DNA of 9,994 nucleotides from IMG/VR virus record IMGVR_UViG_2541047778_000017; one strand, given 5' to 3'. How positions within the stretch are numbered: the stretch's first letter is position 1; each line of letters begins with the position of its first letter. The notes below the pieces were generated by a model, which saw only the letters and a list, made by a program, of their open reading frames with translations, did not search any database and was not told where the DNA came from. Position numbers and translations under genes: made by a program. This DNA comes from a virus (Duplodnaviria > Heunggongvirae > Uroviricota > Caudoviricetes). Shown one piece after another: positions 1 to 7,353 of this stretch.

Positions 1-420
1 ATGACGGATTATCAGCCATACAGGAAAGGAACTGTGCTTGCCCCAACTGGACCATGCAATCATCTTCATGTGATTTGTAATGATCCTGTTTATTACCCCG
101 TTAACGATTGTTATTGTGTTTTAGTTGTTAATATTTCTAGTATCAAGGATGGTGTCCCCCACGATCCGTCTTGCGTCTTGAATTCTGGTGATCATCGCTT
201 TATCAAGCATCCAAGTTATGTTGTTTACGCTGAAGCTATAATTTGGCGAGTGGATAACATGGTTAGAAAGCAGCGATCGGGTGAGATTTCTGTTCATGAT
301 GATATGCCAGAAGCTACATTCAATAGAATTCTGGACGGTTTTGATATCTCTGATGAAGTTACGCCAAAGAACCTTAAATTTAAAAATAAATATTGCGTAT
401 CATCTATTGATGATGAGTAA
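1..420 (+). CDS. PemK/MazF-fold toxin-like protein (139 aa), apparently complete
   Basis: ORF begins at window position 1 with ATG and ends TAA 418-420. By-eye pattern match to Kid/PemK/MazF toxins: N-terminal Y-x-P-x-x-G-x-V motif (YQPYRKGTVLAPTGP), a VLVVNISS segment resembling the conserved VVPVTS-type strand, and a C-terminal SYVVYAEAIIWRVDNMVRKQRSGEISVHDDMPEATFNRILDGF block resembling the GVV...D...R..G.L....E....VL core. No antitoxin-like ORF lies upstream inside the window. Confidence 0.45.
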   Translation: MTDYQPYRKGTVLAPTGPCNHLHVICNDPVYYPVNDCYCVLVVNISSIKDGVPHDPSCVLNSGDHRFIKHPSYVVYAEAIIWRVDNMVRKQRSGEISVHDDMPEATFNRILDGFDISDEVTPKNLKFKNKYCVSSIDDE

Positions 421-459
421 ACAACAGGAATTGTTTCGGTATAACTTCTGGAGTTTTCT

Positions 460-633
460 ATGGAAGATCAAAAAGCAACCAAGCCACAGCTTAAGTTCGA
501 CACAATGAAAGCATTCGCAGGTATGGGGGCTGCTGTTGAAGTTCTGATGAAGGCTGCTCCTAATGCGTTCACTCACGCTACTGTCTCTGGTAAAGAGCAG
601 CAGGGTAAGCTTCGTCGTCGCAAAGCAGCATGA
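460..633 (+). CDS. small protein, 57 aa (MEDQKATKPQLKFDTMKAFAGMGAAVEVLMKAAPNAFTHATVSGKEQQGKLRRRKAA), unknown function
   Basis: Not in the ORF track (below its length cut-off). ATG at 460 preceded by GGAG at 450-453 with 6-nt spacing; TGA at 631-633; intrinsic terminator follows within 20 nt. Basic C-terminal tail. Confidence 0.45.
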   Translation: MEDQKATKPQLKFDTMKAFAGMGAAVEVLMKAAPNAFTHATVSGKEQQGKLRRRKAA

Positions 634-651
634 TCATAGCTGGTGCTTTTT

Positions 652-680
652 GAAAACCCGCCTTTAGGCGGGTTTTTTCT
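652..680. terminator. bidirectional rho-independent terminator between convergent transcription units
   Basis: AAAACCCGCC-TTTA-GGCGGGTTTTTT: GC-rich stem flanked by an A-run on the 5' side and a T-run on the 3' side, so it can terminate transcripts from either strand. It sits right after the stops of the 57-aa ORF (plus) and the PrtN-like ORF (minus). Confidence 0.7.
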
Positions 681-962
681 TTAGTGATGTTCTTTGCCCT
701 TCTGTTTGCCTGTTCTGACCTGTTCCCACTCGATACGTCCTTCTTCTCGTCTTTTGTCTATGTATTCCGCAAGATCCTGAATATTGATGCAACGTTTTGC
801 TTTTTGTGATGTGCCGATGCGATATGTTGGAACGGGCAACTTACAAGCGTTTGCTTTTGCTTCTGCTGTGGCTGGACTCATACCAAAGTACTTTTGGCTA
901 ACTGCTGAGAGTTCAATGTTTGAGGTATTGAATTCAGCCATCAGTAAAAACAAGGTGTTCAT
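681..962 (-). CDS. pyocin-activator PrtN-like small DNA-binding protein (93 aa from ATG at 962)
   Basis: N-terminus MNTLFLLMAEF... and the ...KLPVPTYRIGTSQKAKRCINIQDLAEYIDKRR block match my recollection of PrtN-family proteins. Start chosen at ATG 960-962 because GGAG lies 6 nt upstream and the longer track ORF (start 1037) would overlap the upstream gene by 35 nt. Stop TAA at 681-683. Confidence 0.5.
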   Translation of the reverse strand: MNTLFLLMAEFNTSNIELSAVSQKYFGMSPATAEAKANACKLPVPTYRIGTSQKAKRCINIQDLAEYIDKRREEGRIEWEQVRTGKQKGKEHH

Positions 963-1977: not shown

Positions 1978-2502
1978 TTACGACTCAGTTAACTCTTTAA
2001 AGCGTTCCATAAACATCCCATAGGCATGGCCTGGCGACAGTGGAATAACTTTGAACATCTCTGTTGCCGGGATACCTTCCAGTACAGGCCAGAAAGAGCC
2101 ATCATCAAGCCCGAGATCGCGGCGTTCGGTTGCCAGCATGATGAGATCGGCATATTTCACAGGCGTGCTCATAACCGTGGGTAACCCGTATTTCTCACGG
2201 ATTACGGCGTCTATTTTTTCTTCCATCCGTTTATAGTCAGGAAGAAGGCGTTTCAGCGGCGTGGGGATGTCCTGGCAATACGCTTCTGTTGCATCATGCA
2301 TTAACGCTTCAAAAGCAAATTCCTGCGGCACCAGCTGGCTGCAAAGCACCGCATGTTGGGCGACACTGTAGAAGTGTGAAAGATGACCGGCAAAGCGACA
2401 GATATTTGAAAGGGAAACCGCGATATCGTTAATCACGATGTCGTCTTTATTTATCCTGTCATAATAAAAATGCTTCCCGGAAAAAGTTTTAATAAATGAC
2501 AT
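1978..2502 (-). CDS. yfdR: HD-domain phosphohydrolase, YfdR-like (174 aa)
   Basis: HD signature present (RFAGHLSHFYSVAQHAV ... LMHDATEAY). Sequence and length match my recollection of CPS-53 YfdR. Start at ATG 2500-2502 with GGAG 6-9 nt upstream (the track start at 2532 adds 10 residues without an RBS). Confidence 0.7.
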   Translation of the reverse strand: MSFIKTFSGKHFYYDRINKDDIVINDIAVSLSNICRFAGHLSHFYSVAQHAVLCSQLVPQEFAFEALMHDATEAYCQDIPTPLKRLLPDYKRMEEKIDAVIREKYGLPTVMSTPVKYADLIMLATERRDLGLDDGSFWPVLEGIPATEMFKVIPLSPGHAYGMFMERFKELTES

Positions 2503-2629
2503 TTTGTTCTCCGCGTATATGTGCTGCACCACGCTGAATTCTGGTAAAAGGAAGCCCTCACCATCCGGCGATTATTGAGTCAATTACGTTTCCATAAATG
2601 CCCCCGCAGGGGCATTTGCAGTAATGAAA

Positions 2630-3454
2630 TCAGGCGGTGAAAGTACCAATAAAGGTTTCTACTTTGCTGTCTTTGAATTTCTCAACAAGCAGATCACGAA
2701 ATTCGTTAGCCATTTCTTCCTGCACCGCCTCCAGCTGAATAATGCGCAGAACCAGTACAGGACGATCGCCAGTGATAATGCTGAGGCGTAATTTAAATGG
2801 ACGTTCTTTCAGACCTTCAAACGGAACGCATTTAAATTCAAATGCCACTGGCATAATGTCTTTGGTCTTCGCTTCGACAGATTCCATCAGGGAGCGTTTG
2901 CCGCTGAAGTCATTATCTTCAAAATCAGCGGTCTGGTTTGCTTCAATCGTGATTTTACGGACTGCCGCAGCCGCTTTTGTTGCCTGAATGGCGTCACCAT
3001 TAGCATCAAAGCCCACAAGATAGTCGGCCCAGTCTTCAATCCATTCTGCCAGTGACTTCTGGGAGTTACGCTCGCCATTAACAGACAGCAGGGCAGAGAA
3101 CGGTGCTGTCTTTTTCAGTTTGAGAGTGGCGGTGTTATCTGCGTGACCTGGTTCATCAATAGTACCCAGGTTAAGCACACTGATGGCTCGCATATTATCG
3201 GCATCGATAAAGCAGCGGGTGCCTTCATCTGCAAGATCTTTAGAATAACGGGTAAAGTCATCGATGCTGGCAGTGGAAAGCGCACCACGGAAACGGAAGC
3301 GATTTAAATTAAATTTTTCCAGATCATGAATGCGGAAATTCTCAGGCAATGCCACAGCATCGGCACCAATCTTACTGATAATTTCATTAACACCCTGAGC
3401 AGAAATAAGGGCATGGATTTGATTAATTGCGGTTGCGTCTAAGTTCTGAGACAT
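2630..3454 (-). CDS. yfdQ: YfdQ-like protein of unknown function (274 aa)
   Basis: Full-length ORF with GAGGA 5 nt upstream of ATG 3452-3454. Length and sequence match my recollection of CPS-53 YfdQ, and it sits between yfdP-like and yfdR-like genes as in K-12. Confidence 0.7.
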
Positions 3455-5394: not shown

Positions 5395-5655
5395 ATGCAA
5401 TCACCATTACGAAATGTGCGTAAGGCGCACGGATTTACTTTGCAGCATGTTGCTGCGGGTGTTCAGGTTAATCCAGCGACGCTGAGTCGTATTGAAAGAC
5501 TGGAACAAATTCCATCTATCGATCTTGCAGAACGTCTGGCCAATTTTTTTAAGGGTGAAATCAGCGAAATGCAGATTCTTTATCCGGCACGTTTTCAATC
5601 TAGCCAAAACCAGAATGGGTTTAAACCACAGGAACAGGAGGTAAGCCGTGGGTAA
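5395..5655 (+). CDS. Cro-like XRE-family HTH regulator (86 aa)
   Basis: HTH motif FTLQHVAAGVQVNPATLSRIERLEQIPS; GGAGG 4 nt upstream of ATG 5395; divergent from the repressor. Its 3' end overlaps the start of the next gene. Confidence 0.8.
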   Translation: MQSPLRNVRKAHGFTLQHVAAGVQVNPATLSRIERLEQIPSIDLAERLANFFKGEISEMQILYPARFQSSQNQNGFKPQEQEVSRG

Positions 5656-6205
5656 GCATCACTGGAAAGTGGAAAAACAACCTGAGTGGTACGTGAAAGC
5701 TGTCAGAAAAACTATCGCGGCATTGCCTGGGGGTTACGCTGAAGCTGCTGACTGGCTGGATGTAACAGAGAACGCTTTATTCAACCGCCTTCGTGCAGAT
5801 GGCGATCAGATTTTCCCGCTGGGATGGGCAATGATTTTGCAACGTGCTGGTGGAACTCACTTCATTGCTGACGCTGTGGCGCAGTCTGCAAATGGCGTCT
5901 TTGTGTCTCTTCCTGACGTCGAGGATGTGGACAACGCCGATATTAACCAGCGCCTGCTGGAAGTCATCGAACAGATCGGGAGTTACTCAAAGCAGATTCG
6001 TTCGGCAATCGAAGATGGGGTAGTGGAGCCACACGAGCAGACAGCAATTAATGATGAGTTGTATCTGTCAATTTCGAAGCTCCAGGAGCATGCAGCACTG
6101 GTCTACAAAATCTTCTGCGCTCCAGAAAAGAGTAACGCCCGCGAGTGTGCAGCTCCGGGCGTCGTGGCGTCGATTGCTTCTGGTTGTGGAGAAACTAACG
6201 CATGA
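5648..6205 (+). CDS. CII-like phage regulatory protein (phage 186 CII / CP76-type), 185 aa
   Basis: GTG start at 5648 with AGGAGG at 5636-5641 (6-nt spacing), overlapping the cro-like stop at 5653-5655. Position immediately after cro and overall sequence character recall the CP76-type CII family; this assignment is from memory only. Confidence 0.55.
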   Translation: MGKHHWKVEKQPEWYVKAVRKTIAALPGGYAEAADWLDVTENALFNRLRADGDQIFPLGWAMILQRAGGTHFIADAVAQSANGVFVSLPDVEDVDNADINQRLLEVIEQIGSYSKQIRSAIEDGVVEPHEQTAINDELYLSISKLQEHAALVYKIFCAPEKSNARECAAPGVVASIASGCGETNA

Positions 6206-6350
6206 ACAGTTTAACGGCAAATAACCGTTTGTCGCAACAGCTGGTGGTCAGCGTCGCTGAACACCTGTTGTTACGGCATGAATGCAGATTACCAAATCAC
6301 CTGGCTGTAAGTAACCACAGAGAACTTTACCTGACTGTGGGGGGCGAGTT

Positions 6351-6530
6351 GTGCAGGAACTTAACCGCTGGTTTCGTGACGGAAGAGGGCTTTATGTCCA
6401 TGTTATTCGTTGGGAGCCAGAAACACAGCGCGTTATCTATCTTCGCAAAGACTACCCGCATGAGTGCTTTAGTCCTTTGTGGAAATTCAGGCGTGATTTT
6501 GTTGAGTGTGAAGGACCACCAGCATATTGA
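6351..6530 (+). CDS. candidate small protein, 59 aa (VQELNRWFRDGRGLYVHVIRWEPETQRVIYLRKDYPHECFSPLWKFRRDFVECEGPPAY), GTG start
   Basis: Not in the ORF track. Alternate frame inside the long 6202..7353 ORF, bounded by TAA 6312-6314 and TGA 6528-6530. Its composition is protein-like (W, Y, mixed charge), unlike the overlapping long frame. G-rich stretch 6338-6343 could serve as an SD; a LexA-box-like palindrome lies 31 nt upstream. Confidence 0.3.
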   Translation: MQELNRWFRDGRGLYVHVIRWEPETQRVIYLRKDYPHECFSPLWKFRRDFVECEGPPAY

Positions 6531-6807
6531 TTCTGCAATTCCGGGACGTTACACTGCTCAGGCACCTTATAAAGCGGGTGCCGGGCGTGGAAACCCGAAA
6601 TTCAATATAGAGCACAACCGCGCTCATGCGGTTTTTTCGTGTCATGAGCATCGTTACGCCCAAATTATGGTGGGGCGTGCAGGGCCAACTTCGGTTGGGC
6701 CGGGTTCTATGTTGACCGGTATTTCCACCCCTGTACGTCTCACCACCTATATGGTCGTGGAAAGCCTTGGTGGTGAGTTCATTGAATTCAACATAGGGGC
6801 TGTCACC

Positions 6808-7353
6808 ATGACTACTCTCCCAACCCAATCTCACCCTGAAATCACGATTATCAATGGTCGCGTTGTTACCACATCTTTTGCAGTAGCTAATTACTTTACT
6901 AAACGGCATGAGCGGGTTTTAGATAGAATTAGAAACCTCGAATGTTCCGCTGAATTTACTGAACACAATTTTGTGTTAAGTGAATACACCGACGCATCAG
7001 GCCGCAAACTCCCTTGTTACCAAATCACCCGCGACGGTTTTGCGTTTCTTGCCATGGGCTTCACTGGTAAACGTGCTGCCCGGTTCAAAGAGGCATACAT
7101 AAATGCCTTTAACCAGATGGAAAAACTGCTTTCAAAGCCATCCACGCTGAGCGATGCCGCAGATAACGCCAGCGTGCTTTACTCCCACCTGTCGGTAATC
7201 CACAAGGTCTGGCTGCAGCAGCTTTATCCCATGTTGGCAAAAGCCGAATCCCCGCTGGCTGTAAGTCTGTATGACCGCATCAACGACGCGGCGCTACTGG
7301 CCAGTCTCATAAATTTGTCGCTGAACCCTTCAGAGGTAAGGGGGCGCAAATGA
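6808..7353 (+). CDS. Rha-family phage regulatory protein (181 aa from ATG 6808; the frame is open upstream to ATG 6202)
   Basis: MTTLPTQSHPEITIINGRVVTTSFAVANYFTKRHERVLDRIRNLECS...YQITRDGFAFLAMGFTGKRAARFKEAYINAFNQME matches my recollection of the Phage_pRha domain, which is normally N-terminal. AGGGG lies 8 nt upstream of ATG 6808. The 202 in-frame codons upstream are His/Ser/Arg/Gly-rich and poor in Asp/Lys, which argues against their being coding, although the ATG at 6202 overlaps the cII-like stop (ATGA). Confidence 0.65.
   Translation: MTTLPTQSHPEITIINGRVVTTSFAVANYFTKRHERVLDRIRNLECSAEFTEHNFVLSEYTDASGRKLPCYQITRDGFAFLAMGFTGKRAARFKEAYINAFNQMEKLLSKPSTLSDAADNASVLYSHLSVIHKVWLQQLYPMLAKAESPLAVSLYDRINDAALLASLINLSLNPSEVRGRK

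Follow-up and report, generated by a model that had tools for sequence, protein, structure and literature searches.

A probable PanA–PanT toxin–antitoxin pair, divided by the start of the window, at the att end of an Escherichia coli lambdoid prophage inserted at dusA

The first 420 positions of the window, the term used here for the whole 9,994-nucleotide stretch of DNA analysed, most probably (at a probability of roughly 0.8) encode the toxin of a type II PanA–PanT pair, which forms a swappable cassette at the att end of a lambdoid prophage integrated at dusA, the 57-aa gene that follows being a separate gene. The window comes from such an E. coli prophage, and its base 1 is the first base of the toxin ATG. 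Over positions 1-700 the sequence is shared at 100% identity with many E. coli chromosomes and at 99% with phages SKA5 and Lys8385Vzw, and in E. coli strain E2 the corresponding region is a prophage at dusA; the remaining content of the window consists of lambdoid early genes, namely yfdR/Q/P, a cI-like repressor, a cro-like gene, ymfL and Rha. The features of the region are listed below in window coordinates, together with the evidence for each of them.

-568 to 4 (5432-6004 of locus L001), + strand: panA, 190 aa, lying outside the window except for its end; SocA_Panacea domain (PF13274, 2.2e-19)
1 to 4, + strand: 3' end of panA (last 4 nt), its TGA at 2-4 overlapping the toxin ATG as ATGA; from the 100% identical E. 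coli E2 locus
1 to 420 (stop codon included), + strand: panT, 139 aa, predicted MazF/Kid-fold toxin of the PanT T6 family; conserved N-terminus, AlphaFold2 (AF2) model, fold matches and PanA upstream
421 to 449, + strand: 3' flank of the PanAT cassette and recombination breakpoint; homology with PanAT-less prophages restarts at 447-450
450 to 453, + strand: GGAG ribosome-binding site of the 57-aa gene, read from the sequence; the ATG at 460 stands 6 nt further on
460 to 633, + strand: 57-aa conserved prophage gene (phrog_2741, WP_000390069.1), a backbone or neighbour gene outside the toxin–antitoxin pair; homologues and their distribution
652 to 677 (6652-6677 of locus L001), + strand: intrinsic terminator (11-bp stem with 6 G-C pairs, T-run), ending the rightward panA-panT-57-aa transcription unit
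681 to 1037 (681-962 in RefSeq), - strand: PrtN-type excisionase, marking the att-proximal prophage end; PF11112 at 1.9e-22, phrog_1300 excisionase at 5.5e-39

The partner of the toxin gene lies just outside the window. The initial annotation described the 139-aa ORF as an orphan toxin with no antitoxin gene upstream within the window, which follows trivially from the start of the ORF at base 1; since the window begins exactly at the first codon of the toxin, the orphan status is an artefact. Immediately upstream of base 1 in E. coli E2 lies the gene of a 190-aa 'Panacea domain-containing protein' (WP_000458584.1), which matches PF13274 (SocA_Panacea, formerly DUF4065) over residues 27-137 with 70.9 bits against a cutoff of 25.7. 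The 3' end of this gene (...TCATGACGG) carries a TGA stop that overlaps the ATG of the 139-aa ORF by 4 nt, so that panA and panT follow each other directly on one strand and their translation is probably coupled; a Panacea-domain gene stands directly upstream of the toxin in phage Lys8385Vzw as well. Among the alternatives offered in the initial annotation, the one of an antitoxin just outside the window is thus borne out, panA ending 4 nt into it; that annotation had also named an antitoxin gene immediately upstream as the finding that would make this an ordinary toxin–antitoxin pair with an unrelated 57-aa ORF, and such a gene is what the upstream DNA holds. The DUF4065 domain was named 'Panacea' by Kurata et al. 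(2022, PNAS; PMC8832971), who reported dozens of unrelated toxins (PanT) as partners of PanA antitoxins, and the toxins most relevant here are those of their cluster T6.

The pairing is strictly conserved. A genome scan with the family alignment gave 32 PanT loci, which span Enterobacterales, Vibrionales, Methylococcales, Piscirickettsiaceae, Burkholderiales, Sphingomonadales, Rhodobacterales and others, and 30 of which are informative, the other two being located at contig ends without upstream DNA. A PanA homologue directly upstream on the same strand is present in all 30, in Gamma-, Alpha- and Betaproteobacteria (phmmer E from 1e-112 to 7e-11); the panA/panT junction is a -4 overlap (ATGA or GTGA) in 16 of them, and the other 14 show TAATG-type or other overlaps of -1 to -4, or gaps of 3-62 nt. 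The order PanA then PanT also recurs in five phage records, including Yersinia phage YeP1, Klebsiella phage ST13-OXA48phi12.5 and Pseudomonas phage Sirocco. When the E. coli query is run with or without panA, an identical set of 205 of the 5,426 complete E. coli genomes (about 4%) is matched, which means that PanA is present in every genome that carries PanT. The record of Sirocco (OR683410.1) contains, at 1477-1884 and downstream of the PanA homologue, a PanT homologue of 48% identity that bears no annotation, a 44-aa ORF on the opposite strand being annotated at that place. In this P2-like phage the PanAT pair lies beside the portal gene, a position that we take to be a known P2 defence hotspot.

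The 139-aa and 57-aa ORFs are genuine genes and not chance ORFs. The former is confirmed at positions 1-420 with its ATG at base 1, and its product matches the unnamed phrog_19071 in PHROGs (3e-31), has homologues in 62 clusters with identities as low as 47%, and belongs to a family whose profile retrieves 2,703 representative proteins, taken from clusters at 50% identity, at E<=1e-3. RefSeq places the toxin start 11 codons later, at a GTG at base 34 (128 aa, WP_014640052.1), probably on account of the AGGAAAGGA in front of this codon; that start would delete the first beta-strand of PanT, which comprises residues 10-16 in the AF2 model. The conservation of residues 1-11 among the homologues, which agrees with the complete N-terminus proposed in the initial annotation, the position of this strand and the overlap of the ATG with the panA stop together make the 139-aa form the likely product, and the ATG at base 1 the likely true start. 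Defective toxin copies, truncated or frameshifted, occur in some E. coli genomes in which PanA keeps its annotation: there are products of 53 aa and 116 aa (cluster members P0077 and P0081), a locus shorter by 1 bp and a locus with a deletion (E. coli matches H35 and H45), and such copies could reflect a toxin that is inactivated now and then. Clustering of proteins at 90% identity groups the 139-aa toxin with 190-aa PanA sequences and a 232-aa 'DUF4065' protein, and this mixture is probably a clustering artefact of overlapping or fused gene calls over the ATGA junction.

The assignment of the 139-aa protein to the Kid/PemK/MazF toxins, which the initial annotation had drawn from a sequence pattern, is upheld by the predicted fold but not by any of the sequence profiles applied. 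The AF2 model, built on an alignment of 54 sequences (mean pLDDT 90.1, pTM 0.84), contains an SH3-like barrel of the MazF/Kid type with extra C-terminal helices; the top 50 Foldseek matches in the PDB are all MazF, the best matches among viral models are proteins named 'PemK-like' or 'Endoribonuclease', and MazF and Kid score above CcdB in both fold searches. At the sequence level, the protein has no match in Pfam (PF02452 included), NCBIfam or PADLOC, and profiles made from the 54 homologues, or from 127 representatives at 24-50% identity, recover no MazF, Kid or CcdB among PDB sequences. When the 127 relatives are scanned individually with Pfam, none is significant for PF02452, with a single one at E 0.11. 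An hhalign comparison with a five-sequence MazF/Kid/EndoA alignment, in which the Kid sequence was checked against 1m1f, gave a probability of 0.4%, a weak negative in view of the thin template and of a comparison made on sequence without secondary structure. The MazF/Kid fold of PanT is clear in the predicted model and lies beyond the reach of HMM search.

The residues that are nearly invariant in the PanT family are H21, D55, C58, H65, S72, Y76, G63, F67, G113 and S117. As the criterion for MazF catalysis, an Arg in the GxEQxGxRP S1-S2 loop together with a Thr/Ser was considered (R29/T52 in E. coli MazF; R73/D75/H17 in Kid). Reading of the PanT sequence reveals no GxEQxGxRP loop motif and, since the near-invariant residues are other ones, the RNase chemistry of PanT is not established. 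Functional equivalents of the MazF catalytic residues may nevertheless be present in the PanT structure. In a reading of the secondary structure by eye, H21 and S46/S47 fall roughly near the positions of MazF R29 and T52, and some 24 residues (48-71) have the look of an insertion; the H21/D55/C58/H65 set, which would lie largely on this inserted loop, might form a zinc site or a novel catalytic centre. The conservation of these His, Asp, Cys and His residues is the one non-trivial scientific point that the analysis leaves.

In a different view of the toxin, PanT has a MazF/CcdB fold without being an RNase, acting as a gyrase poison or through another His/Asp/Cys/His chemistry or target, and is still neutralised by PanA. 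This is improbable, inasmuch as MazF and Kid outscore CcdB in the fold searches and H21 and S46/S47 seem, by eye, to sit roughly where MazF has R29 and T52, while the T6 representative selectively inhibited protein and not DNA synthesis (PMC8832971), which argues against a gyrase poison. A further reading, rather unlikely in our estimation though less so, holds that T6 PanTs have a MazF barrel in which H21/D55/C58/H65 replace the Arg/Thr loop and that their target or chemistry is other than the mRNA cleavage of MazF. Its second and separate part is that the prophage panAT, placed in a swappable att-proximal slot and, in a P2-like Pseudomonas phage, beside the portal gene, may be an abortive-infection defence with Panacea as the sensor of the infecting phage. 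It would be much more surprising if panT were a non-toxic or decayed passenger beside panA, with no toxin activity in E. coli. The truncated or frameshifted E. coli copies (53 aa and 116 aa; H35 and H45) and the lack of toxicity in E. coli of 8 of 25 predicted PanTs (PMC8832971) would agree with such a passenger, but PanT is strongly conserved over its whole length, its strict and probably translationally coupled pairing with PanA extends over three proteobacterial classes, and cluster T6 includes a validated toxic relative.

The least credible of the readings considered is the toxin-first arrangement raised in the initial annotation, in which the 139-aa toxin would be paired with the downstream 57-aa protein. 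The individual elements that suggested it are all present as described, that is, the two ORFs, the GGAG at 450-453 and the terminator after the 57-aa ORF; both genes are on the same strand, stand 39 nt apart and have a common terminator after them but none in between, and the 57-aa gene has a good ribosome-binding site. The distribution of the genes contradicts the pairing, however, since no homologue of the 57-aa protein is found at any of the 32 PanT genome loci, even at E<=10, or in three further phages; in Kosakonia and Pluralibacter, a PanAT of 86-87% identity abuts the same excisionase and the 57-aa gene is absent. Conversely, the 57-aa gene is found together with xis but without PanAT in phage mEp460 and in about 360 E. 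coli genomes, and prophages of Salmonella, Enterobacter and Franconibacter likewise have it without PanAT, after a gene of 177-179 aa. The toxin, moreover, already has a dedicated antitoxin, PanA, upstream. The 57-aa ORF had been presented as one that annotation missed, yet it is the RefSeq protein WP_000390069.1; it matches phrog_2741 over its full length at 1.5e-35 and has homologues of equal length, down to 65% identity, in Escherichia, Salmonella, Enterobacter, Atlantibacter, Franconibacter and Cronobacter. With a pLDDT of 60.6, its AF2 model cannot be relied upon. The 57-aa gene is thus a separate conserved prophage gene that merely has its transcript end and terminator in common with panAT, the terminator at 652-677 being the sole terminator-like site on the + strand from panA to xis.

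The prophages without PanAT also delimit the cassette. In mEp460 and the approximately 360 E. coli genomes, the match to L001:5432-6700 is limited to 1016/1019-1269 of that segment, that is, to 447/450-700 of the window. Where the 57-aa gene occurs without PanAT, it is preceded in 15 of 15 loci, Salmonella, Enterobacter and Franconibacter prophages included, by a gene of 177-179 aa, with a gap of about 190 bp (2271-3174 in locus L003; loci L036-L049); its 177-aa product (gp23 of mEp460, WP_000956557.1, phrog_4350) has no match in Pfam or the PDB, and its C-terminal part looks GNAT-like by eye. The occurrence of either PanAT or the 177-aa gene upstream of a constant 57-aa gene indicates that the att-proximal slot carries alternative cargo. 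The unit of the 177/179-aa and 57-aa genes occupies two prophage positions, a pattern that suggests a mobile moron cassette: E. coli and Salmonella have it beside att/xis, and in Enterobacter and Franconibacter it stands between the Q antiterminator and the genes for lysis. The phage genome has its integrase gene beyond panA, in divergent orientation, which places panAT, after integration, at the extreme edge of the prophage, adjoining the attachment site.

Other elements of the window deserve mention in their own right. Beside the excisionase, a 296-aa predicted membrane protein (1003-1893, - strand; phrog_12528, E 6e-161) has a weak match to the SieB superinfection-exclusion family (PF14163, E 1.4e-3, below the cutoff) and a PADLOC match to Csx27 (E 2e-5), and may be an exclusion or defence membrane protein. 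On the + strand at 6562-6750, within the ORF of the Rha family regulator (6202-7353), two Rfam matches exceed the gathering score, an isrK Hfq-binding RNA (6562-6638, 61.6 bits) and a C4 antisense RNA (6663-6750, 82.4 bits), and this region is reminiscent of a C4 immunity element of the P1/P7 type or an isrK-ant module of the Gifsy type. The Rfam search of window positions 1-700 returned no RNA family.

Taken as a whole, the locus is most probably an ordinary PanA–PanT pair cut by the window edge, accompanied by an unrelated small neighbour gene, and the PanAT family to which it belongs has been known since 2022. By analogy with the T6 pair of Pseudomonas moraviensis, PanA would neutralise PanT by direct binding, and PanT, once free, would inhibit translation; judging from the fold, cleavage of RNA would be the most likely route to such a block. 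The genomic position of panAT, in a swappable slot next to att and, in Sirocco, beside the portal gene, would be consistent with a function in prophage maintenance, in abortive-infection defence, or in both; the literature yielded nothing specific on a defence phenotype of PanAT, and PADLOC gave no match for the pair. The case illustrates how a gene at base 1 of a window can pass for an orphan toxin when its partner is cut off, and it has consequences for annotation, the RefSeq toxin start being 11 codons late and panT missing from at least one phage record (Sirocco). It also draws attention to a widespread MazF-fold PanT family that lacks a Pfam model and is carried by temperate phages of E. 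coli, Yersinia, Klebsiella, Vibrio and Pseudomonas.

Among the known systems, the closest are the pairs of cluster T6, whose toxins were described by HHpred as 'EndoA/PemK/MazF-family RNases', have no CDD match and occur in antitoxin-first order with -4 or -1 junctions in Proteus, Pluralibacter, Pantoea septica LMG 5345, Yersiniaceae 2016Iso4, Photorhabdus, Halomonas, Pseudomonas, Methylococcales and Alphaproteobacteria (PMC8832971). Two of the loci recovered in the genome scan, L009 and L008 (P0249), come from Pantoea septica LMG 5345 and Chimaeribacter/Yersiniaceae 2016-Iso4; their toxins are 55-57% identical to the query, and their junctions of -4 and -1 equal the values given for these strains, with the order A|T, in the T6 rows of Dataset S1 (PMC8832971). 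On account of these shared strains with matching junctions, the E. coli pair is filed as a T6-type PanAT. The Kurata dataset includes only two E. coli genomes, which belong to clusters T1 and T3 and neither of them to T6 (PMC8832971), so that the E. coli prophage copy is a new putative T6 member.

The validated T6 pair is that of P. moraviensis (WP_083354365.1 / WP_083201923.1), whose toxin is toxic in E. coli, is neutralised by PanA, co-purifies with it in pull-down assays and selectively blocks the incorporation of 35S-methionine, i.e., translation (PMC8832971). This toxin is absent from the matches listed for the broad-profile homologue search, and the putative kinship of the E. coli PanT to it is based on shared membership of the Kurata cluster. 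The E. coli pair resembles T6 in having a standalone Panacea antitoxin without an N-terminal domain first and, overlapping it by -4 or -1, a toxin of some 130-140 aa second; in a toxin with no CDD or Pfam match and nevertheless a MazF/PemK-like structure; and in a taxonomic spread over Enterobacterales, Pseudomonadales, Vibrionales, Methylococcales and Alphaproteobacteria. The N-terminus of its PanA, MFCEEKVAQ, resembles the restored N-terminus of the P. moraviensis PanA, MIFSEQKVAQ (PMC8832971). The P. moraviensis pair was scored 'NotPhage' (PMC8832971), unlike the E. coli pair, which is clearly phage-borne.

Compared with MazF, Kid (PemK) and EndoA (PF02452), PanT shows no profile-level similarity and only 7-16% identity in structural alignments; GxEQxGxRP is missing from its short S1-S2 loop, the conserved residues being H21, D55, C58 and H65 instead, it has the insertion of about 24 residues (48-71) and additional C-terminal helices, and its antitoxin is the Panacea-domain protein PanA and not MazE, Kis or PemI. 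The fold scores of CcdB, CptN, ToxN and AbiQ are below that of MazF. A CcdB identity was rejected, there being no CcdB profile match and no CcdA partner, and the T6 representative blocking translation and not replication; a type III identity (ToxN/CptN/AbiQ, with an RNA antitoxin) was likewise rejected, since a search of L001 5000-6800 for tandem repeats found none. With regard to the antitoxin, Ernits et al. (2023; PMC10440598) reported that a Panacea domain standing alone is able to neutralise a toxin directly, and proposed a sensor role for Panacea. The domain PF13274 (SocA_Panacea) is also common to the E. coli PanA and to SocA of the Caulobacter SocAB system, where SocA is a ClpXP adaptor; the E. 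coli protein differs from SocA in reaching 14 bits against the NCBIfam SocA equivalog cutoff of 190, its toxin is unrelated to SocB and, unlike SocAB, the PanA of T6 binds its toxin stably, which is type II behaviour.
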